Shown: positions 3,470 to 56,614, numbered from the stretch's first letter. The stretch is 64,000 nt of DNA from Candidatus Oxydemutatoraceae bacterium (GCA_965220085.1 CBDCOZ010000003.1:192001-256000), one strand, 5' to 3'. A program made the numbers and translations. Notes: generated by a model not told the origin, from the sequence alone.

Positions 3470-5212
3470 CTTGGTGGACAAGGGTTGCCCTCTTTTTTAT
3501 ACCATTTATTAAGGTATTCTGAAGGGACCTCCGTATCCCAATACTGAATTATCACATTGGCCATTTCTTTAGATAATGTTCCACAGCGGGCATATCCAAT
3601 AGAAGCTTTTTCATTTTGATGCAAATTAAGTTGGTCTTCAATCTTTGACTTTATCTCATCAGGCACCCCATCGGGTAGTTCAGAGATAATCTCCTCAATA
3701 TGTTTTGGTTTTAACTCTCCAAAATCGCAACCATATAGACTTGATGGTTTATCAATGCGCTCCCTTATTCTTGCTTTACCATCATTGTAGATAGTGCGCT
3801 CCCATGAGATAGTGCGCTCCCATGAACAAGATGCGCCTTGTAATTGGGCCCAAGCAAGACTTACACCTTGTAATTGGGCGTCATAGAGGTTTGCGCCTTG
3901 TAATTGGGCGTCATAGAGCTCTGCGCCTTGTAATCTGGCCCCATGGAGATTTGCGCCTTGTAATTGGGCTTCATAGAGAGCTGAGCCTTGTAGTTTGGCC
4001 TTAGAGAGATCTGCGCCTTGTAATTGGACGGTAAAGAGAGCTGAGCCTTGCAATTGGGCGTCAGAGAAATCTGCGCCTTGTGATTGGGCGTCAGAGAAAT
4101 CTGCGCCTTGTAATTGGGCGTTAGAGAAATCTGCGCCTTGTGATTGGGCGTTAGAGAAATCTGCGCCTTGTAATTGGGCGTTAGAGAAATCTGCGCCTTG
4201 TGATTGGGCGTTAGAGAAATCTGCGCCTTGTAATTGGGCATCAGAGAGCTTTGCGCCTTGCAATTGGGCATCTTCTAATTTGGCCTTAGAGAGCTTTGCG
4301 CCTTGTAATTGGGCACCTTCTAATTTGGCCTTAGAGAGATTTGCTTTGTTCAGGTGAGCCTGTTGAAAGTTGGCACACCTAAATGAGCGGCCATTATATG
4401 CCTGATTTCTGCTGGCTTTATCCTCTGCTAACTGAGGCACGCTAATTATTCCTGGCGTAAACATTCCTTTTACCCTTGGTATAACAGTTTCTTTTATCCT
4501 TGGTATAACAGTTTCTTTTGTCCTTGGTACAGATGCAGAAGTTTCTTCAGGTGCATACGCAGAACAATCTCCCTGATAGATTGGGAGGTAGAAGGATATT
4601 GAGAGTGCAGGAAGTATAATAACTGGCGGTAATATAAAAAATATCCATGCGAATATGTCCTTCCAAAAAGAATACAGCAACTTGTGATAGCGGTATGCAG
4701 TATACAGAGAGAATACAAAAAAGGCACCGTTCCATGACACAAGCCAGGGCCCCTTGATAATCGATAATCCTGATAAGCAAAAAAAGGATAGTCAGCATTG
4801 GCAATGTTAATAATATGAATGCGTTAAATCGTTGGGCAGATAGCCTTTCTTTCCCTTCCGGAAGTATTATGGAAAAGTCAAAAACAAAAGGTATTGATGG
4901 TTCCCTCCCATTCTTTTCCAGCTTTTCTTTGTGTTGGTTCAAGTGGAAGCATAAATATCGTTGTAATGTGATGAGTATCGGAGCAACAAGCGTATAAAGA
5001 ACTAAAAATGGGATTGTAGTACCGGCAAATGGGATAGTGATACCGTTGCCAACCAAATCTAACAAATCCGCATCTGATGTGGATAGGGTTGCGGTCATAG
5101 TAAGAAGACAAATCCCGACGAAGAGTATATAGAGGCGTCTGTTAGTAGTTATAGATCCTCTTAGAGTCTCTGCGGAATCATCAGATGGTGTGTGCGGTTT
5201 TGTGGACATCAA
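3466..5212 (-). pseudogene. Membrane pentapeptide-repeat protein, split by a +1 frameshift near 4750
   Basis: ORFs 4547-5212 and 3466-4740 align to the N- and C-halves of 229-1575. There is an extra base in a short G run after IIDYQ, and the repeat tract is longer than in the paralog. Confidence 0.75.
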
Positions 5213-10414: not shown

Positions 10415-11545
10415 GTGATTATGTGGATACACGAGCATCAAAACTGGCCAAACCTGACTTGGGACACCGAAGCGCTGGCTTCCAAGTTGGCTGACATACG
10501 CCATCGGCAGGGGCGGTTGCTCGGGCGCATGGATGGCATCGGCTTTGAGTTCAAGCGAGAGGCTTGCCTTCGCACGCTGACTGATGATGTGGTGAAGTCG
10601 TCCGCTATCGAGGGCGAGAACCTCAACCCCAAGGAGGTGCGCTCATCGGTTGCCCGCAGGCTGGGGATTGATGTAGCCGGTCTTGTGCCGGCGGGCAGGG
10701 ATGTGGAAGGCGTTGTCGCAATGATGTTAGATGCTACGCAGCAATTTGCAAAGCCGCTGACGAAGGAGCGCATGTTCGCTTGGCATGCGGCGCTGTTTCC
10801 GACAGGGCACAGCGGCATGAACCGGATAACCGTCGGCGGGTGGCGCACATCGGATGCCGATCCCATGCGGGTCGTATCCGGCCCCGTCGGTCGCGAGAAG
10901 ATTCGCTTTGAAGCCCCCGCCGCAAAGCGGCTGGAAAAAGAAATGCGGGTGTTTCTGGACTGGTTTGAAAATGGTCGCAGCGGGCATGACATTGATCCGG
11001 CGCTCAAAGCGGGAGTCGCCCATGTGTGGTTTGTTACCATTCATCCGTTTGCGGATGGGAACGGTCGCATTGCCCGAACCATCGGCGATATGGCGCTTGC
11101 GCGAGCGGACGGCATCCCCGATCGTTTCTACAGCCTGTCGTCCCGGATTGAAGCCGAGCGCAAAGATTACTATGACCGACTGGAAAAGCAACAACGCGGC
11201 ACACCGGAAATCACGGGGTGGCTGGAATGGTTTTTGGATTGCTTGGGACGCGCCATCGACGGCGCCGAGACTTCCCTTGGCAATGTGCTGTTTAAGGTGC
11301 GCCTGTGGGACAGGATTCATCGCGGTCGCGCGCCCGTCAACGAGCGCCAGCGTCTGGTCATCAACCGCATGTTGGAAGACTCCTTTGAAGGGCATATGAA
11401 CACATCGCAGTACGCCCGGCTGGCAAAGTGCTCCAAAGACACGGCGCTCAGGGACATTCAAAGCCTGAAAGAAAGGGGGCTGTTTGCGCAAAATTCCGCC
11501 GGCGGGCGCAGCGCCGGCTACAGGCTGCCTGCGACGCTGCCCTGA
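10415..11545 (+). CDS. Fic family protein (DUF4172 N-terminus, C-terminal HTH)
   Basis: WIHEHQNWP start, SSAIEGE, and HPFADGNGRIAR. Confidence 0.92.
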   Translation: MIMWIHEHQNWPNLTWDTEALASKLADIRHRQGRLLGRMDGIGFEFKREACLRTLTDDVVKSSAIEGENLNPKEVRSSVARRLGIDVAGLVPAGRDVEGVVAMMLDATQQFAKPLTKERMFAWHAALFPTGHSGMNRITVGGWRTSDADPMRVVSGPVGREKIRFEAPAAKRLEKEMRVFLDWFENGRSGHDIDPALKAGVAHVWFVTIHPFADGNGRIARTIGDMALARADGIPDRFYSLSSRIEAERKDYYDRLEKQQRGTPEITGWLEWFLDCLGRAIDGAETSLGNVLFKVRLWDRIHRGRAPVNERQRLVINRMLEDSFEGHMNTSQYARLAKCSKDTALRDIQSLKERGLFAQNSAGGRSAGYRLPATLP

Positions 11546-11780
11546 GATGACGGGCAATTTTGCCCGATAGCCGTATAATCGCTATCATCAATCGCAATAT
11601 CAAAAGCGCTCCAAAGATACGGCGCTCAGGGACATTCAAAGCCTGAAAGAAAGGGGGCTGTTTGCGCAAAATTCCGCCGGCGGGCGCAGCGCCGGCTACA
11701 GGCTGCCTGCGACGCTGCCCTGAGATGACGGGCATTTTTGCCCGATAGCCGTATAATCGCTATCATCAATCGCAACATCA
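11428..11780 (+). repeat. 179-bp tandem duplication of the fic 3' end and downstream region
   Basis: 11428-11600 is repeated almost exactly at 11607-11780. Confidence 0.9.
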
Positions 11781-11787
11781 ACGGGGG

Positions 11788-12372
11788 TTGGCAATGGGAC
11801 TGAAAAACACAAAACACGATTACGGCACGATAGCCAAGTGGCTGCATTGGGGAACGGCGCTGCTGTTCTTGGCCGCATACGTCAGCGTTTACTATCGGCA
11901 ATGGTTTACGGAGGAGAAAACTCCGGAGAATTGGACCGCCCTGCAGATACATTTGTCTGTCGGGGTGACCATCGCCGTTGTCGTGGCGTTGCGCATCATC
12001 TGGCGGATGACCAATCGCCTGCCGGCTCCGGAGCCGGGCAACAAGGCGTGGCAACTGATGATACGCGCCGGGCACTACACGCTTTATGCCGTCATGATTC
12101 TGATGCCGATAACGGGCTATATCGGCACCGGCGCGAATACGGAATATTTCTTTCTGTTTGATATTCCGAAGTTTGAGGACACGCAGTTGTTTGCGCTGCT
12201 GGTTCAAGACGGGATGGGCATGACATTCAAAGAGTTTGAAGAGCCCATTGACTTTATTCACAAGGACGTGATGGGCGCGTGGGTGGTTTGGATACTGATA
12301 TTGGGGCATATCGCAGCCGCGCTGTACCACCACTTTGTCAAGAAAGACCGCACCCTGCGCAAGATGACCTGA
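11788..12372 (+). CDS. Cytochrome b561 (YceJ/CybB-like)
   Basis: YGTIAKWLHW, HLSVG, GHYTLY and GHIAAALYHHF heme-ligand histidines. Confidence 0.9.
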   Translation: MAMGLKNTKHDYGTIAKWLHWGTALLFLAAYVSVYYRQWFTEEKTPENWTALQIHLSVGVTIAVVVALRIIWRMTNRLPAPEPGNKAWQLMIRAGHYTLYAVMILMPITGYIGTGANTEYFFLFDIPKFEDTQLFALLVQDGMGMTFKEFEEPIDFIHKDVMGAWVVWILILGHIAAALYHHFVKKDRTLRKMT

Positions 12373-12452
12373 GTTGCCAGCGCTGAGAAGCCGGACGGTG
12401 TTTGGTTTGTTCTTTTGGCGGGGCATGATTTTTTGGCTTCGGGGGCAGCGCC

Positions 12453-13052
12453 ATGTCTGAGATAGCGAAGCCCACCGCGGCAGAGGTGCGCCGGTATCAA
12501 AAGAGGTGGACATCCGACCGGTACTTCCGCGAAGAAAATGCCCTTGATAAGTTGTTCCGGGCATGCCCTCAAAATCGTTGCGTTAAAGATGTTCTGATCA
12601 AAGTCGCTTCGCTCAATGCCCTTTACAGCGCCGGCGTTTTCCCCGACGAATATGTCGAGATTGCGGATATGATTTGCGAACTGGATATTGACGAGAGGTT
12701 AAAAACGGGTTGTCCCGACCTTGTGGAAGACATTGCCAACGGCGCACGGGAGGCTATAAGCAATCTGGAAGGGCCAGGAGGAAGGCCGCGGGGAAGGAGG
12801 TATGCCTTTGCTGCCAAGTACTGTAGCTTTCACAATGAATGTGCCTACCCCATGAGAGACACATTGGTGGCGGACATGCTCAAGAAGTTCAGGCGGCGCG
12901 GGGATGCGGGCTTTGCTTTTAAGAATCGCGAGTTAGACAGCTATCCGGAGTTTCGTGCGGTGGCGGAACGGTTCAGGGAAGCCTACGGACTGACAGAATT
13001 CTCCTTCAGAGAGATTGACCGCTACCTGTGGCTATTGGGGCGCGGGCGCTGA
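12453..13052 (+). CDS. Conserved hypothetical protein, possibly HhH DNA-glycosylase-like
   Basis: AFAAKYCSFHN..YPMRD and terminal REIDRYLW motifs. The fold call is inference. Confidence 0.6.
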   Translation: MSEIAKPTAAEVRRYQKRWTSDRYFREENALDKLFRACPQNRCVKDVLIKVASLNALYSAGVFPDEYVEIADMICELDIDERLKTGCPDLVEDIANGAREAISNLEGPGGRPRGRRYAFAAKYCSFHNECAYPMRDTLVADMLKKFRRRGDAGFAFKNRELDSYPEFRAVAERFREAYGLTEFSFREIDRYLWLLGRGR

Positions 13053-20911: not shown

Positions 20912-22738
20912 ATGCAATTGATTTCTCTTCTTTATTCTATTCTTTATTATTTTCTAATTTTTGCGCCGGTTGCGGCAGCTCTTCTTCTTTTCCTTTGGGT
21001 TGCTGAGAAGAAGCTAGGGATTAAAGGGCGCCTCATTGGCGGCAAAAGCAATGTGTTATGGCCATTAGTAGTAGTGGTGCTGGTTTTTGGTTTCATGGAT
21101 AAATACAGCGAGGAGGCAGGCGATTTTTTGGGCCAGATAACAAAAGTAGAATTCGGAAATCTAACACTTGAAGCGCAACAAGAAGTACCAGCAGAGGCAT
21201 TATTTCTTGTACCGCCAAAGGAGGCAGAATCGCAACAGTATCGCGAAGAATCACGGTGTCCACCGCCTACACTAACAGCGATAAACGGAGAATCTAATGA
21301 AGATAACCAGAATAGAATGGAGGCAAAAGCATCAGATAAAAAACTAGAAGGTAACAGAATTGGCGAGAAGGAAAAAGAATCTATACGGCTTCTTGCTAAT
21401 CAGGGAGATGCCGAAGCACAGCAGTCGCTCGGTGTGATGTACGTAGCAGGGCGAGGTGTTCCGCAAAACTACAAAGAGGCAGTGAAATGGTTTCGGCTTG
21501 CTGCTGATCAGGGGGATGCCGAAGCACAACACAATCTTGGTGTGATGTACATAGCAGGGTGGGGTGTTGAGAAAAATGATGAAGAGGCAGTGGAATGGTT
21601 TCGGCTTGCTGCTAATCAGGGGGATGCCGAAGCACAATTCAGCCTCGGTGTGATGTACGAGGATGGAATAGGTGTTGAGAAAAATGATGAAGAGGCAGTG
21701 AAATGGTTTCGGCTTGTTGCTAATCAGGGGGATGCCGAAGCACAATTCAGCCTCGGTGTGATGTACGCAGAAGGGCGAGGTGTTCCGCAAAACTACGAAG
21801 AGGCAGTGGAATGGTTTCGGCTTGCTGCTAAGCAGGGGTTTGCCGAAGCACAATACAATCTTGGTGTGATGTACGAGGATGGAATAGGTGTTGAGGAAAA
21901 TGATGAAGAGGCAGTGGAATGGTTTCGGCTTGCTGCTAAGCAGGGGTTTGCCGAAGCACAGCAGTCGCTCGGTGTGATATACGAGAAAGGAATAGGTATT
22001 TCGCAAAACTGCGAAGAAGCAGTGAAATGGTATCGGCTTGCTGCTAATCAGAAGTTAGCCGAAGCACAATACAATCTTGGTGTGATGTATGCAGAAGGGC
22101 GAGGTGTTCCGCAAAACCACGAAGAGGCAGTGGAATGGTATCGGCTTGCTGCTAAGCAGGGGATAGTTGAAGCACAATTCAGCCTCGGTTGGGTGTACGA
22201 GCATGGAGGAGGTGTTAAGAAAAATGATGAAGAGGCAGTGGAATGGTATCGGCTTGCTGCTAATCAGGGGGACGCCGAAGCACAATTCAGACTCGGTGTG
22301 ATGTACGCAAAAGGGCGAGGTGTTCCGCAAAGCTACGAAGAGGCAGTGAAATGGTATCGGCTCGCTGCTAATCAGGGGTTAGCCGAAGCACAATCCAATC
22401 TCGGTTGGATGTACGCAAAAGGGCGAGGTGTTCCGCAAAGCTACGAAGAGGCAGTGAAATGGTATCGGCTCGCTGCTAATCAGGGGCTAGCCGAAGCACA
22501 ATCCAATCTCGGTTGGGTGTACGCAAAAGGGCGAGGTGTTCCGCAAAACTACGAAGAGGCATATATATGGTTTTCTATTGCAACGGCTAACAGGCATGAA
22601 TATTCAGAATCTTCCCGAGATACTATTGCTAAGGAGTTGTCTGCAGAAGAATTGAAGGAATCGCAACGCAAAGCGCAAGAAAGACACCGGCTGTTGGTTG
22701 AAAAGAGACAAAGAGTCACAAGAAGAGTAAATGGCTAA
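20912..22738 (+). CDS. Membrane-anchored Sel1-repeat protein (~11 repeats)
   Basis: 36-aa repeats AEAQxxLGVMYxxGxGVxxNxEEAVxWxRLAAxQG; two N-terminal TM segments. Confidence 0.95.
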   Translation: MQLISLLYSILYYFLIFAPVAAALLLFLWVAEKKLGIKGRLIGGKSNVLWPLVVVVLVFGFMDKYSEEAGDFLGQITKVEFGNLTLEAQQEVPAEALFLVPPKEAESQQYREESRCPPPTLTAINGESNEDNQNRMEAKASDKKLEGNRIGEKEKESIRLLANQGDAEAQQSLGVMYVAGRGVPQNYKEAVKWFRLAADQGDAEAQHNLGVMYIAGWGVEKNDEEAVEWFRLAANQGDAEAQFSLGVMYEDGIGVEKNDEEAVKWFRLVANQGDAEAQFSLGVMYAEGRGVPQNYEEAVEWFRLAAKQGFAEAQYNLGVMYEDGIGVEENDEEAVEWFRLAAKQGFAEAQQSLGVIYEKGIGISQNCEEAVKWYRLAANQKLAEAQYNLGVMYAEGRGVPQNHEEAVEWYRLAAKQGIVEAQFSLGWVYEHGGGVKKNDEEAVEWYRLAANQGDAEAQFRLGVMYAKGRGVPQSYEEAVKWYRLAANQGLAEAQSNLGWMYAKGRGVPQSYEEAVKWYRLAANQGLAEAQSNLGWVYAKGRGVPQNYEEAYIWFSIATANRHEYSESSRDTIAKELSAEELKESQRKAQERHRLLVEKRQRVTRRVNG

Positions 22739-35529: not shown

Positions 35530-36552
35530 CTACGGGTTTTGCAACTCGTGGAGCAGGTCTTGCGGGGAGCGGGGGCCGCTGAGGAGTCTGCCGTCGTCAA
35601 GCAGGAAGGTTGGTGTTCCGGCGACATTTAAGGTTCTGGCCAGAGCAAGGTTGTCGGCGACGGGGTCGGAGTCGCAGGATGCTTTTGCAATGGCCTCGCC
35701 TGCCATGGCTTTGTCCAGAGCGGCTTGGCGGTCATCGGAGCACCATACATTAATAGTCTGGCGCACAGCCTCATCGCCAAGGAATGGCACGAGGATGTAG
35801 TCAACCCGGATGCCGCGCTTTTGAAACTCGTTCAGTTGGCCGTGCAGCTTGCGGCAGTACGGGCAGTTGACATCGCTGAAGACGCGAACGGTGTGCCGGT
35901 ATTCTTCGGGGGCGTAGGTCAGGAGGTTTTCCTGTTTGATGTTGGCGAGGCTCTCTTTGCGCAAGGAGGCTTTCACCCGCTCGCCCAGATTGACGTTGTC
36001 GCGCAGGTTGAACAGTGTTCCGGCAATCAAAAACTTGCCGTCATCGGACTTGTAATACACCTTGCCACCGGCGGCGATGACTGTGGCGAACCCTTTCAGC
36101 TTGGAGGGGAAACTTTTCAGGGCGCGGACATCGGGAAGCTCTGCGCGCTTCACAGCGGCGGGGTCATCCCCGCGCAACACGGCTTGCGCCCGCTCATTCA
36201 GGCTGACACTGTCGCGCACATTAAACACAGTCCCGGCAATCAGGAACATGCCGTCATGCGAAATGTAATACACCTGCCCGTTGGCGGTGACTGCGGAAAA
36301 CCCTTGCAATCCCGACGGGAGCGCGTCTTCCACCTGAACGTTCGGAAACGATTGATCCATATACTTCTGCGCCTGCCCGCGGTCGAGCGTCTCGCCGCCC
36401 GCCCCGCTGTGACTATCCGCCCGCGCACTCTGCGCCGCGCCCGGCGCAACCAAGCCGACAGCAGTCATAGCAACTAGAGCAACCAGCGCACCCGCGCCGA
36501 CAATGACCGGCGTAATCGCCGCCGGCATCAAGCAACTAAATCTTGTTTTCAT
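35530..36552 (-). CDS. dsbC: DsbC-family disulfide isomerase with duplicated N-terminal dimerisation domain
   Basis: FSDVNCPYCRKLH and GTPT. Two copies of the YYxSxDGxFLIAGTxFN domain. Confidence 0.85.
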   Translation of the reverse strand: MKTRFSCLMPAAITPVIVGAGALVALVAMTAVGLVAPGAAQSARADSHSGAGGETLDRGQAQKYMDQSFPNVQVEDALPSGLQGFSAVTANGQVYYISHDGMFLIAGTVFNVRDSVSLNERAQAVLRGDDPAAVKRAELPDVRALKSFPSKLKGFATVIAAGGKVYYKSDDGKFLIAGTLFNLRDNVNLGERVKASLRKESLANIKQENLLTYAPEEYRHTVRVFSDVNCPYCRKLHGQLNEFQKRGIRVDYILVPFLGDEAVRQTINVWCSDDRQAALDKAMAGEAIAKASCDSDPVADNLALARTLNVAGTPTFLLDDGRLLSGPRSPQDLLHELQNP

Positions 36553-36829
36553 TTCGCATCCTCCCGTTAAAAGTCCAGTGCAATCAAGTCAATATGAATC
36601 GTCCCGCCCATCAGTTCTTCGGAATCGGTGGTCTCGGCATAGGCGAGTTTGACCAGCCCACCCGCGCCGACAACGACCGGCGCAATCGCCGCCGGCATCA
36701 AGCAACTAAATCTTGTTTTCATTTCGCATCTTCCCGTTAAAAGTCCAGTGCAATCAAGTCAATATGAATCGTCCCGCCCATTAACTCCTCGGAGTCGGTG
36801 GTCTCGGCATATTCCAGCTTGACCAGCCC
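36490..36829. repeat. 170-bp tandem duplication spanning the lipoprotein/dsbC junction
   Basis: 36490-36659 is repeated at 36660-36829. Confidence 0.92.
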
Positions 36830-43881: not shown

Positions 43882-44320
43882 ACTTATAAAGTAGGTCCTG
43901 ATTCTCTTTAAAAGCACTCTGAACTTCTAAAGAAACTTTATTTTCTCCGCCAACTTATAAAGCAAACCCTGATTCTCTTTAAAAGCACTCTGAGTTTCTA
44001 AAGAAACTTTATTTTCTCCGCCAACTTATAAAGCAAACCCTGATTCTCTTTAAAAGCACTCTGAGTTTCTAAAGAGACTTTATTTTCTCCGCCAACTTAT
44101 AAAGCAAACCCTGATTCTCTTTAAAAGCACTCTGAGTTTCTAAAGAAACTTTATTTTCTCCGCCAACTTATAAAGCAAACCCTGATTCTCTTTAAAAGCA
44201 CTCTGAGTTTCTAAAGAAACTTTATTTTCTCCGCCAACTTATAAAGCAAACCCTGATTATCTTTAAAAGCACCCTGAACTTCTAAAGAAACTTTACTTTC
44301 TCTGAGAACTATTAAAGATA
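43882..44320. repeat. 71-bp AT-rich tandem repeat x6 upstream of a fic gene
   Basis: gatt(c/a)tctttaaaagc recurs at 43900, 43971, 44042, 44113, 44184 and 44255. Confidence 0.95.
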
Positions 44321-53163: not shown

Positions 53164-54207
53164 ATGTTTGAAAATGAGTTTTATACGGCGGAAAATCACG
53201 GCGAGTTTGAGGTCTTTGACCTCGGAGACTTTGACCTGACCCACGGCGGGACCTTGCCCGATGCCAAGCTGGCATACGCGACTTATGGCGAGCTCAACGA
53301 CGCGCGCGATAACGCCATCGTGTTTCCGGTCATGTTTTCCGGCACCAGCGGGAGCTTGAAGCACTATGTGGGCGAAGGCCTGGCGCTGGACCCCGGCAAA
53401 TACTTCATCGTGATTCCGAACCAACTGGGCAACGGGATTTCAAGTTCCCCGCACAACACGCCCGCGCCGCATGCGATGTCGGCTTTTCCGAAGCTGGATA
53501 TCGCCGACGATGTGCGCGCGCAACACCGGCTGATGACGGAGCGCTTTGGCGTTGAGACAGTCGCCCTCGTGCTGGGTTGGTCGATGGGCGCGCAACAGAC
53601 CTACGAGTGGGCGGTGCGCTACCCCGAGGTCGTGCGGCGCGCGGCGCCCATCGCCGGCACCGCGCGGACGACGCCTCACGACGCGCTCTATGTGAGCGTG
53701 TTCTCCGAGGCGCTGAAGTCGGACCCGGCGTGGAACGGCGGCGAATACGCCGACCCGCACGGGGTGGAAACCGGCTTGCGCAGAATGGCGCATGTGTTTG
53801 CCCTGATGGGCGTGTGTTCCGAGTTCTATAAGCGGGAGCAATGGACGACGCTGGACATCCCCGATGCGGAGACTTTTCTGAGCGGCTTCTGGGAGAAGTG
53901 GTTTTTGCCGATGGACCCCAATGCCTTGTTGTGCATGGCCGACAAATGGAAATGCGGAGACGTAAGCGCCCCGCACGGCGGCGACTTGGCGCAGGCCCTC
54001 GGGCGGATTAAAGCCAAGACCTGCGTGATCGCCTTTGCCGAAGATATGTTTATTCCCGCGCGTGATTGCCGCGCCGAGCAGGCGATGATTGCGGGCAGCT
54101 CTATCGTTGAGTTGCCCACGCTGTGGGGACACTTCGGCATGATGGGCTTGGCCGAAGAAGACTTCAAGGCCATTAACAACGCGGTCAGCGACCTGCTGGC
54201 GCAGTAG
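53164..54207 (+). CDS. Alpha/beta hydrolase, homoserine O-acetyltransferase-like family
   Basis: LAYATYGELN, GWSMGAQQ, Asp (EDMF) and WGH; RBS aaggagg. Confidence 0.85.
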   Translation: MFENEFYTAENHGEFEVFDLGDFDLTHGGTLPDAKLAYATYGELNDARDNAIVFPVMFSGTSGSLKHYVGEGLALDPGKYFIVIPNQLGNGISSSPHNTPAPHAMSAFPKLDIADDVRAQHRLMTERFGVETVALVLGWSMGAQQTYEWAVRYPEVVRRAAPIAGTARTTPHDALYVSVFSEALKSDPAWNGGEYADPHGVETGLRRMAHVFALMGVCSEFYKREQWTTLDIPDAETFLSGFWEKWFLPMDPNALLCMADKWKCGDVSAPHGGDLAQALGRIKAKTCVIAFAEDMFIPARDCRAEQAMIAGSSIVELPTLWGHFGMMGLAEEDFKAINNAVSDLLAQ

Positions 54208-54214
54208 GGCTTGA

Positions 54215-55600
54215 CACACTCCCCCTCACCGCATCGCCCATCGCCTGACGGCTTGGACTCTGCGACTCTCCCGCGAGGGGAGAGTAATGCATCGTGCGCG
54301 AGGGGAGCATAATGCACAGTGCCAAACTGCGCTCCCCCCTTGCGGGGGAGTCGGCAAGCCAAGGGCACAGCCCGCAGGCTGCCGGAGAGGGGGAAAGTTT
54401 CCGGCTTGGACGACACAATATTCCTTTTGCGGGGGAGTATTCCCCCTCTCCGTCTTATGTTGCGCTTGCCGATTCTCCCACGCAGGGAGCTCTATCGTTG
54501 AGTTGCCCACGCTGTGGGGACACTTCGGCATGATGGGCTTGGCCGAAGAAGACTTCAAGGCCATTAATAGCGCGGTAAGCGACCTGCTGGCGCAGTAGGA
54601 CTCGATACACTCCCCCTCACCGCCGCGAGGGGAGAGTGTTGCACATTGCTAACATCATTCCCTCCTTGCGGGGGGAGTGCTCGCACTAAGTGCAGAGTCT
54701 AAGTCGCAAGCAAAAAGTGATGCAACGGAGAGGGGAGAAGCTTCCGGCTTGGACGACACAATATTCCTTTTGCGGGGGAGTGTTTCCCCTCTCCGTCTCG
54801 CTACGCTCGCCGACTCTCCCGCGAGGGGAGAGTGTTGCACATTGCTAACATCATTCCCTCCTTGCGGGGGAGTGCTCGCACTAAGTGCAGAGTCTAAGTC
54901 GCAAGCAAAAAGTGATGCAACGGAGAGGGGAGAAGTTTCCGGCTTGGACGATACAATATTCCTTTTGCGGGGGAGTGTTTCCCCTCTCCGTCTTATGTTG
55001 CGCTTGCCGATTCTCCCACGCAGGGAGCTCTATCGTTGAGTTGCCCACGCTGTGGGGACACTTCGGCATGATGGGTCTGGCTGAAGAAGACTTCAAGGCT
55101 ATCAATAGCGCGGTAAGCGACCTGCTGGCGCAGTAGGACTCGATACACTCCCCCTCACCGCATCGCCCATCGCCTGACGGCTTGGACTCTGCGACTCTCC
55201 CGCGAGGGGAGAGTGTTGCACATTGCTAACATCATTCCCTCCTTGCGGGGGAGTGCTCGCACTAAGTGCAGAGTCTAAGTCGCAAGCAAAAAGTGATGCA
55301 ACGGAGAGGGGAGAAGTTTCCGGCTTGGACGACACAATATTCCTTTTGCGGGGGAGTGTTTCCCCTCTCCGTCTTATGTTGCGCTTGCCGATTCTCCCAC
55401 GCAGGGAGCGTCATGCACAGCGCCAACCTGCGCTCCCCCCTTGCGGGGGAGTCGGCAAGCCAAGGGCACAGCCCGCAGGCTGCCGGAGAGGGGAGAAGTT
55501 TCCGGCTTGGACGACACAATATTCCTTTTGCGGGGGAGTATTCCCCTCTCCGTCTCGCTACGCTCGCCGACTCTCCCGCGAGGGGAGCGTCATGCATCGT
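54215..55600. repeat. REP mosaic with two orphan copies (54488-54598, 55026-55136) of the last 111 bp of the hydrolase gene
   Basis: Repeated ctcccccttgcgggggag and actctcccgcgagggg palindromes in recurring blocks. Confidence 0.9.
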
Positions 55601-55657
55601 GCGCGAAGGGGAATTGAAAGAGCTCGCGATTACGATTCCCGCGAAGGGAGAGCGGCG

Positions 55658-56614
55658 CTATGCGCTTGCGATGTGCGTAATTGCCTGCACAAGCGCGTCT
55701 TTGATTCCGGGTTCGGATTGGCTGTGACCGGCGGCATCGACCATGCGGAGTTCGCCATCCGGCCAATGCCGCAGCAATTCGTGCGCCGCACAGGGCGGGC
55801 AGAGCAAGTCATACCGCCCCTGAACGATGACCCCTTTGATGCCGCGCAGTTTCTGCGCATGGGCGATTAATGCGCCGGGTTTTAGAAAACTCTCGTTGGA
55901 AAAATAATGCGCTTCCATGCGCGGCGTATTTGGCAGCGGGCGTTTGTCTTGTGCGGCGAGGGGCAGGGTGAGTTCGCCCGGCCTCAGCGCCGATAGGGCG
56001 CGCTCGTAATCGTGCCACACATGGGCGGCGGGGGCGCAGACCGCCGCATCATCGCTGAGCAGGCGCCGATAGTATGCCCGCAACGGGTCGGCCTGTTCGT
56101 CCGCATTGAGACAGGCGACAAACTGTTCGTATAAATCGGGGTAAAACCGTTGCGGGATTTCTATGAGTGCGCGTCGCATGGCGGCGTTGTCGCCGAAGAA
56201 GAACGAGCGGATGACAATGCCTTTGACCCGCCGCGGGTGCGCTTGCGCATACGCGATGGCGAGCAGCGCGCCCCAGGAGCCGCCGACAACCAGCCAGCGG
56301 GGGATGCTCAATTGTTCGCGGATAAGCTCCAAATCGGCGATCAAATGCCGTGTCGTATTGTTTTCCAAACCGCCTTTCGGCGCGCTGTTGCCGGCGCCCC
56401 GTTGGTCGGGCGCGATGACTCGGAAGCGCTTGGGGTCAAACAGGGCCGAGAGCGCGGCTATGCGGCAACCGCTGCCGGGGCCGCCGTGCAGGAAGACAAC
56501 GGGAATGCCCCGCGGGTTGCCGTATTCCGCAACCGCCAGAGTGTGGGTCGCATCCGCTCGGATGCTGTGCGCGGCGCATTGCCCGTCAGCCACTCTTGCT
56601 TGGATCGCGCGCAA
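55658..56614 (-). CDS. pip: Prolyl aminopeptidase (S33 family)
   Basis: LHGGPGSG, DQRGAG, GGSWG, QGRYDLLCP and AGHS. Confidence 0.88.
   Translation of the reverse strand: MRAIQARVADGQCAAHSIRADATHTLAVAEYGNPRGIPVVFLHGGPGSGCRIAALSALFDPKRFRVIAPDQRGAGNSAPKGGLENNTTRHLIADLELIREQLSIPRWLVVGGSWGALLAIAYAQAHPRRVKGIVIRSFFFGDNAAMRRALIEIPQRFYPDLYEQFVACLNADEQADPLRAYYRRLLSDDAAVCAPAAHVWHDYERALSALRPGELTLPLAAQDKRPLPNTPRMEAHYFSNESFLKPGALIAHAQKLRGIKGVIVQGRYDLLCPPCAAHELLRHWPDGELRMVDAAGHSQSEPGIKDALVQAITHIASA

Follow-up and report, generated by a model that had tools for sequence, protein, structure and literature searches.

Stacked copies of a hydrolase gene end within a REP-like hairpin array of a Candidatus Oxydemutatoraceae bacterium: a probable microhomology duplication

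Displaced 3′ gene ends that are stacked downstream of a full-length gene are well known from the orphan cdiA-CT/cdiI and rhs-CT arrays, and REP/BIME elements, which are short intergenic hairpin repeats, are well known together with their RAYT transposases. REPs are also said to provide join-points in duplications, to go by the title of a report by Shyamala et al. from 1990. Junctions of amplifications in E. coli carry 4–15 bp of G-rich microhomology and are thought to originate from template switching, with some of them being located in REPs (Slack et al., 2006; PMC1428787). Here, we describe a locus within a 64,000-nt stretch of the genome of Candidatus Oxydemutatoraceae bacterium (GCA_965220085.1 CBDCOZ010000003.1:192001-256000; this whole stretch is referred to as the window and its numbering is used throughout), in which the 3′ end of a gene for a MetX-like alpha/beta hydrolase is present three times in an array of REP-like hairpin repeats. 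This arrangement probably goes back to a tandem duplication at a microhomology, which was later amplified or re-copied within the repeat array, and not to a dedicated tail-swapping system.

Unlike the cdiA-CT and rhs-CT orphans, which are divergent toxin tips accompanied by immunity genes, the tails of this locus encode the same 36 residues save for one Asn/Ser site. With REP/BIME elements the locus shares hairpin repeats that are clustered in arrays between convergent genes, in this genome at around 56 places, but unlike REP/RAYT systems the genome does not contain any PF01797 match, and matches of the REP-like query were confined to the source genome among the 41 genomes searched. The likeness to tandem amplifications of E. 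coli and Salmonella comprises direct repeats, a homology of a few G-rich bases and a junction situated within an imperfect intergenic palindrome or next to it, as well as a non-homologous first join with homologous expansion following it and without a dedicated recombinase (PMC1428787). Unlike in those amplifications, the units measure 391–538 nt instead of 7–32 kb and gene dosage is not under selection; the age of the copies has allowed differences at 3–8 of 111 nt, and the genome holds 196 such arrays. As in the case of the e14 prophage and icd-icdC, an orphan 3′ end with mainly synonymous and conservative changes lies downstream of an intact gene. However, e14 measures 15 kb and recombines site-specifically, whereas the window described here exhibits no integrase and the tails are accompanied by no cargo, only by hairpin repeats (PMC13626634).

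The junction between the REP-like arm and the gene

The hydrolase gene (53164..54207, plus strand) is an open reading frame (ORF) of 347 aa that matches Pfam Abhydrolase_1 and NCBIfam NF005757 (458.7 bits, cut-off 332). Its last 36 codons together with the TAG stop codon form the resident tail R (54097..54207), and alignment revealed two further gapless copies of these 111 nt, orphan tail o1 (54488..54598) and orphan tail o2 (55026..55136), which are likewise closed by TAG and which lie, as all features of the array, on the plus strand. A BLAST search with the region against the whole genome of 2.49 Mb yielded these three tail copies only, with E-values of 1e-57 and 8e-116 for the hits covering the orphans. 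An earlier interpretation made from the DNA alone (hereafter the sequence-only reading) had described a threefold occurrence of the last 111 bp with a common left breakpoint and with each extra copy fused to a REP arm, and alignment and BLAST bear this out.

To the left of both orphans stands the arm H1v (TCTCCCACGCAGGGAGC), a variant arm of the hairpin H1, followed by TCTATCG; at the matching place the gene has GCGGGCAGC, which is also followed by TCTATCG. Where the gene reads GCGGGCAGC the arm reads GCAGGGAGC, so that seven of nine nt are alike and AGC is common to both. With AGC at 54097-54099 being shared in this way, gene-only sequence starts at 54100. The folding of H1v is weak (5 bp, -4.4 kcal/mol, z -1.6). 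In junction 1 (54474..54499) this arm is joined to tail o1 at the shared AGC, and sequence comparison revealed junction 2 (55012..55037) to be identical to it, with around 100 nt upstream also being common to both (5 differences in 105 nt). Genome-wide, exact matches to the 17-nt arm number three, all of which belong to this locus, while nine occurrences are obtained when up to two mismatches are allowed; the third exact copy (55394) retains its native continuation, GGGAGC followed by GTCATGCACAG (55394-55420). As the junctions are identical, their upstream flank is common and the exact arm is restricted to the locus, the join appears to have been formed once and then to have been inherited or copied. 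The shared left breakpoint therefore points to one founding event rather than to a repeatedly used site, which argues against the idea that tails are added again and again at a REP-defined junction.

The gap of 1450 nt between the hydrolase gene and its convergent neighbor, a prolyl aminopeptidase gene (55658..56614, minus strand; TIGR01249, 279.7 bits), is filled by repeat sequence and is not unique, and the end of the aminopeptidase gene is present singly (copy depth 1 at 55620-55700). Tandem Repeats Finder (TRF) describes a degenerate array with a period of 195 and 5.1 copies at 54623-55587. An anchor search fixed the order of its modules as hairpin H1 (CTCTCCCGCGAGGGGAGAG), a spacer a or b holding hairpin H2, and a long hairpin X, with DNA folding energies of -8.1, -8.7, and -16.6 kcal/mol for H1, H2, and X. 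Pieces of this mosaic are dispersed, with matches in 56 two-kb bins of the genome and a copy depth of around 50 for H1. Within the locus three units follow each other head-to-tail with spacings of 391 and 538 nt, each of them with the tail first and H1v last. Unit 1 (391 nt) consists of tail, lead, H1, spacer a with H2, X, and H1v, its REP-like segment (54208..54487) being delimited by anchor search, folding and copy depth. Alignment and anchors show that the REP-like segment of unit 2 (54599..55025; whole unit 538 nt) has lost 39 nt from its lead and contains two b-type units, one of them additional, before it ends on H1v. In unit 3 the tail is followed by lead, H1, spacer b, X, and H1v, and the native continuation of this arm then leads into a last a-type unit with X and H1 (REP-like segment 55137..55600; anchors and arm search). 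The stretch 54806-55028 matches 55187-55409 at all but 3 of 223 positions. Such near-identical but shuffled units are explicable because unequal exchange among 195-nt units yields this kind of structure. Both the single shared junction and the structure of the array are read directly from the DNA.

Two ORFs, 54287-54598 (103 aa) and 54885-55136 (83 aa), run from REP-like sequence into the orphan tails in the frame of the tail, and a GGGGAGAG stretch stands immediately ahead of the ATG of the former. The idea of translated mini-genes was rejected, as neither ORF matches an NCBIfam family or a record of the protein collection and the two do not have a common start. An Rfam search yielded nothing meaningful (best hit E = 0.056, far under the gathering score).

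Differences among the tails, at the locus and genome-wide

Three coding sites set R apart from both orphans, two of them silent (AAC/AAT and GTC/GTA) and one exchanging Asn for Ser (AAC/AGC), as do three more positions directly past the stop codon (54209, 54212, and 54215). Five sites inside 28 nt distinguish o2 from R and o1 (GGC/GGT, TTG/CTG, GCC/GCT twice, and ATT/ATC), all of them silent and all of them C/T differences, and o1 does not have any private change. The differences between R and o2 form two abutting blocks, patch A (54147-54174), in which o1 has the state of R, and patch B (54177-54215), in which o1 has the state of o2. In agreement with the sequence-only reading, seven of the eight variable coding sites among the three tails are silent, the two orphans differ at five silent sites and no indels are present. 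The five silent changes of o2 have a probability of P = 0.017 under a spectrum-matched null, because 63% of the possible C>T changes in the tail are silent. The differences include both C>T and T>C changes, which does not accord with a single deamination event. Polarizing the sites by means of relatives was given up, since an alignment with the six nearest orthologues showed too much divergence (69% mean column identity). In silent share the locus is joint top among 38 loci with at least five variants, and about one locus as silent-biased as this one is expected by chance among that number.

For the whole genome, orphan tails were collected for genes of at least 150 aa as downstream copies of the 3′ end only, with at least 88% identity and outside of long ORFs, using BLAST's own alignments. 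This yielded 166 downstream orphan tails, 18 of them with an indel, for 82 genes. Among 508 distinct coding differences 238 are silent (46.9%), whereas 156.6 (30.8%) are expected if the same base type is placed randomly in that tail (z = 8.2). Context-dependent mutation was rejected as a source of this bias, as a null based on trinucleotide context left the expectation unchanged (156.8 silent). When the tails were read in either wrong frame, 25–26.5% of the differences counted as "silent"; this frame control, like the count of repeat-flanked copies given below, was obtained with a first set of alignments that had an end-gap artefact and in which the overall silent share was 45.7%. Together with the seven of eight silent sites of the focal locus, the excess of silent differences supports the view that the differences bear the mark of purifying selection on a functional copy. 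The corresponding dN/dS-like ratio, a test proposed in the sequence-only reading, amounts to ~0.51 genome-wide, (270/351.4)/(238/156.6). This ratio lies close to neither 1 nor 0 and agrees with a selected resident combined with neutral orphans, and to this extent it does not support an exchange of functional tails. In a simple model with an omega of ~0.1 for the resident and a neutral orphan of equal branch length around 45% of the differences would be silent (hand arithmetic), which is close to the observed 46.9%, so that the plain model of selected residents and neutral orphans fits the total. In a class-wise test on 41 genes with at least two orphans, from which the focal locus was excluded, differences between the resident and all of its orphans were silent in 47 of 102 cases (31.2 expected, z 3.5).

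A duplication history and its alternatives

Under the preferred reading of a microhomology duplication, the hydrolase gene would originally have ended ahead of a tandem array of hairpin-containing REP-like units of ~195 nt, which reached to the prolyl aminopeptidase gene. One template-switch or slipped-strand event may then have led from the 3′ side of the weak arm (…CAGGGAGC) to the gene at …GGGCAGC, using the 3-nt AGC microhomology, and would have produced a head-to-tail duplication of the tail plus ~280 nt of REP-like sequence, with the gene staying intact because the first copy retains the stop codon. Unequal crossing-over, both of the resident tail with the orphan and of REP-like units with each other, could have given rise to a third copy with the old junction, and the accompanying reshuffling would account for the spacings of 391 and 538 nt, the a and b spacers and the 39-nt deletion. 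The silent bias would arise since selection filters the resident lineage alone. A likely order of events has o2 as the oldest copy, after which the resident would have changed in patch A, o1 would have been copied from the resident by unequal exchange with the old junction being kept, and the resident would finally have changed in patch B. We infer the crossing-over step, the origin of the silent bias and this order from the arrangement described above. A second tail copy within 3 kb of the gene was found in none of the 17 relatives examined, which marks the duplication as lineage-specific. RecA and MutS were both found in the genome. The RecQ RQC domain (PF09382) and the C-terminal domain of exonuclease I (PF08411) were not found, which is no more than a hint given that the controls were positive in just 7 and 1 of 14 genomes; loss of such functions could raise illegitimate recombination.

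Several observations weigh against this history. Under a neutral, spectrum-matched null, at least seven silent sites out of eight have a probability of 0.003, and even at the genome-wide silent rate of 0.469 this probability is 0.024 (hand arithmetic), so that the silent share of the locus exceeds the prediction of the plain model. Furthermore, all 11 differences between R and o2 fall inside the 69 nt of 54147-54215, out of 189 nt aligned, with identical flanks (P = 1.4e-4); clock-like decay in situ does not predict such clustering, which at this locus is stronger evidence than the silent bias. If the resident had acquired seven silent mutations, a neutral o2 should have gained many non-silent ones in the same time, and it has none. 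In the class-wise test, changes private to the last copy were silent in 36 of 63 cases (18.1 expected, z 5.2) and those private to an inner copy in 33 of 67 (22.3 expected, z 2.9, with stricter filters lowering z to 1.8 and 1.2), whereas the plain model forecasts ~31% silent changes for inner copies. Changes of inner copies should be neutral and are yet silent-biased, and it is therefore likely that conversion or re-copying couples the orphans to the resident to some extent. A "fossil ladder", in which distal copies are older, had to be rejected as a general rule, as the distal copy is more diverged in 17 of 41 arrays, less diverged in 12 and equal in 12. Finally, the available contigs are short-read contigs (run X1) and give no single-molecule confirmation of the three-tail arrangement.

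The clustering in particular would be accommodated by a history with the same structure, in which a diverged functional allele of a co-resident strain supplied patches A and B to the resident or to an orphan through gene conversion or homologous recombination, the orphans then being older or foreign haplotypes. This appears possible, albeit unlikely. Apart from the clustering, it is favored by the mixed C>T and T>C directions with seven of eight sites being silent, by a difference at silent sites in the patches that is far above that of the adjacent REP-like modules (3 of 223 and 5 of 105) and by the clock argument, as an imported patch does not demand the non-silent changes that a neutral o2 would be expected to gain. 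Moreover, P0002, a full-length relative in another assembly with 94% identity, terminates in …AINSAVSDLLAQ and has the Ser of the orphans, so that their Ser state exists in a functional gene. However, no donor was found: the genome contains the three copies only, and searches for genes ending in each haplotype, as the sequence-only reading had suggested, using an exact 26-mer and a degenerate pattern for all three haplotypes, gave 0 hits in metagenome_contigs and 0 in genome_contigs. The locus was also picked after the fact, with about one as extreme being expected among the 38, the relatives are too diverged for polarizing the sites, and the flanks may owe their identity to homogenization within the array. 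That the stack or its mixture of haplotypes is an assembly artefact, produced by joining the reads of different strains via the repeat array of a metagenome-assembled genome (MAG), is very unlikely. All relatives are MAGs, the genome comprises three contigs of which repeats make up a third, and run X1, whose contigs break in repeats, lacks any contig on the resident-specific stretch 54127-54208, although such a gap does not carry any weight by itself. On the other hand, the junction of REP-like sequence and tail shares only AGC with the gene, a place at which an assembler would not join, and the units differ structurally in their a and b spacers, the 39-nt deletion and the extra unit. In addition, the chimeric o1 haplotype is present in X1, which is possibly the source sample, as an exact 136-nt contig (54488-54623) with a depth of 46.8 compared with 29.7 and 40.4 for the flanks.

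A dedicated, integrase-free and REP-guided exchange of gene ends, as put forward in the sequence-only reading, or its variant, a small integrating element that carries its own tail in the manner of e14 and icd, seems scarcely credible by comparison with the microhomology duplication. Its attraction lies in the stacked copies with one left breakpoint and in the silent-biased differences, and e14 with icd-icdC demonstrates the existence of displaced C-terminal fragments whose differences are mostly synonymous (PMC13626634). However, the identity of breakpoint and upstream flank argues for one event, and the tails are separated by just 280–430 nt of hairpin repeats, the ORFs there being devoid of matches as described above. 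The tails encode the same peptide but for the Asn/Ser site, and nothing indicates that a tail has ever been replaced. Neither RAYT (PF01797) nor DUF559 (PF04480) yielded any match in the genome, which is rated 99% complete, with the RAYT control being positive in 6 of 14 genomes, and the three tyrosine recombinases (PF00589) of the genome are all located outside the window. The term integrase-free accordingly holds for the window, while a RAYT- or DUF559-type nuclease tied to the REP did not turn up. Duplicated gene ends are, moreover, widespread in this genome even in the absence of such a junction: of the 196 tandem arrays, 69 extend across the 3′ end of a gene, and a high-copy repeat just upstream was seen for 11 of 210 copies (8 of 99 genes; the focal orphan is unflagged at that threshold). 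One further locus, at 36490, had been counted as another gene-end case. There, a 170-nt tandem duplication (36482-36829; 2.0 copies, 92% matches) includes the beginning of an ORF on the minus strand (35530-36552) and hence the head of a gene rather than its tail.

Gene-end arrays in the wider genome

The source organism is an uncultured gammaproteobacterium with a genome of 2.49 Mb in three contigs, whose nearest relatives are MAGs labeled Candidatus Oxydemutatoraceae and Porisulfidus; all of the relatives are MAGs from sponge and other marine metagenomes. Among the genomes compared it is the sole member of its genus, and the nearest orthologues of the hydrolase gene are ~74% identical in DNA. 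In the largest contig (C3), one third of the sequence has matches elsewhere in the genome. With TRF, 196 tandem arrays with a period of 50–600 nt were found, of which 69 lie across the 3′ end of a gene, 64 within genes (55 of them in frame), 24 across 5′ ends only and 39 between genes. Hairpins of the CTCTCCC…GGGAGAG type are also present 3′ of orthologous hydrolase genes in two related genera (L011:4045-4200 and L004:4033-4190), and this style of hairpin repeat may be older than the family of the source genome itself.

Other arrays of the genome illustrate this variety. Outside the window, the 3′ end of mutS (ORF C3:1209351-1211930, minus strand) is tandemly repeated at C3:1208320-1209495 with a spacing of 147 nt and seven downstream copies, whose distances from the resident alternate as 1, 3, 7, 1, 7, 1, 7, which suggests a higher-order repeat. 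Inside the window, a 178-nt tandem duplication (11425-11781; 97% matches) contains the tails of two convergent genes (10415-11545, plus strand, and 11626-12564, minus strand), and an in-frame repeat of 108 nt (36 aa) occurs in 10.9 copies at 21386-22561, presumably as part of a Sel1/TPR-type repeat protein, which it resembles. Two arrays of shorter period are located at 43882-44302 (71 nt, 5.9 copies) and 3832-4269 (30 nt, 14.6 copies).

For the focal locus itself little is at stake, with an intact hydrolase and additional tails that do not encode anything new. A more far-reaching idea, which we consider distinctly doubtful and which is prompted by the silent bias of changes private to single orphans and by the two adjacent blocks at this locus, is that orphan tails are not inert, and that arrays could exchange sequence with the resident end by gene conversion, or capture allelic tails of co-resident strains by homology-anchored recombination in the repeat arrays, and in this way preserve gene-end haplotypes as a kind of small archive. 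With gene conversion involving the resident end, selection on the gene would reach the orphans as well. The locus also calls for caution, as a common breakpoint together with silent differences is insufficient to infer cassette exchange. With ~196 short arrays and ~80 genes that have a duplicated 3′ end, the 2.5-Mb genome of this uncultured bacterium represents a natural experiment on how microhomology duplications originate and survive and on how the resulting orphans evolve.

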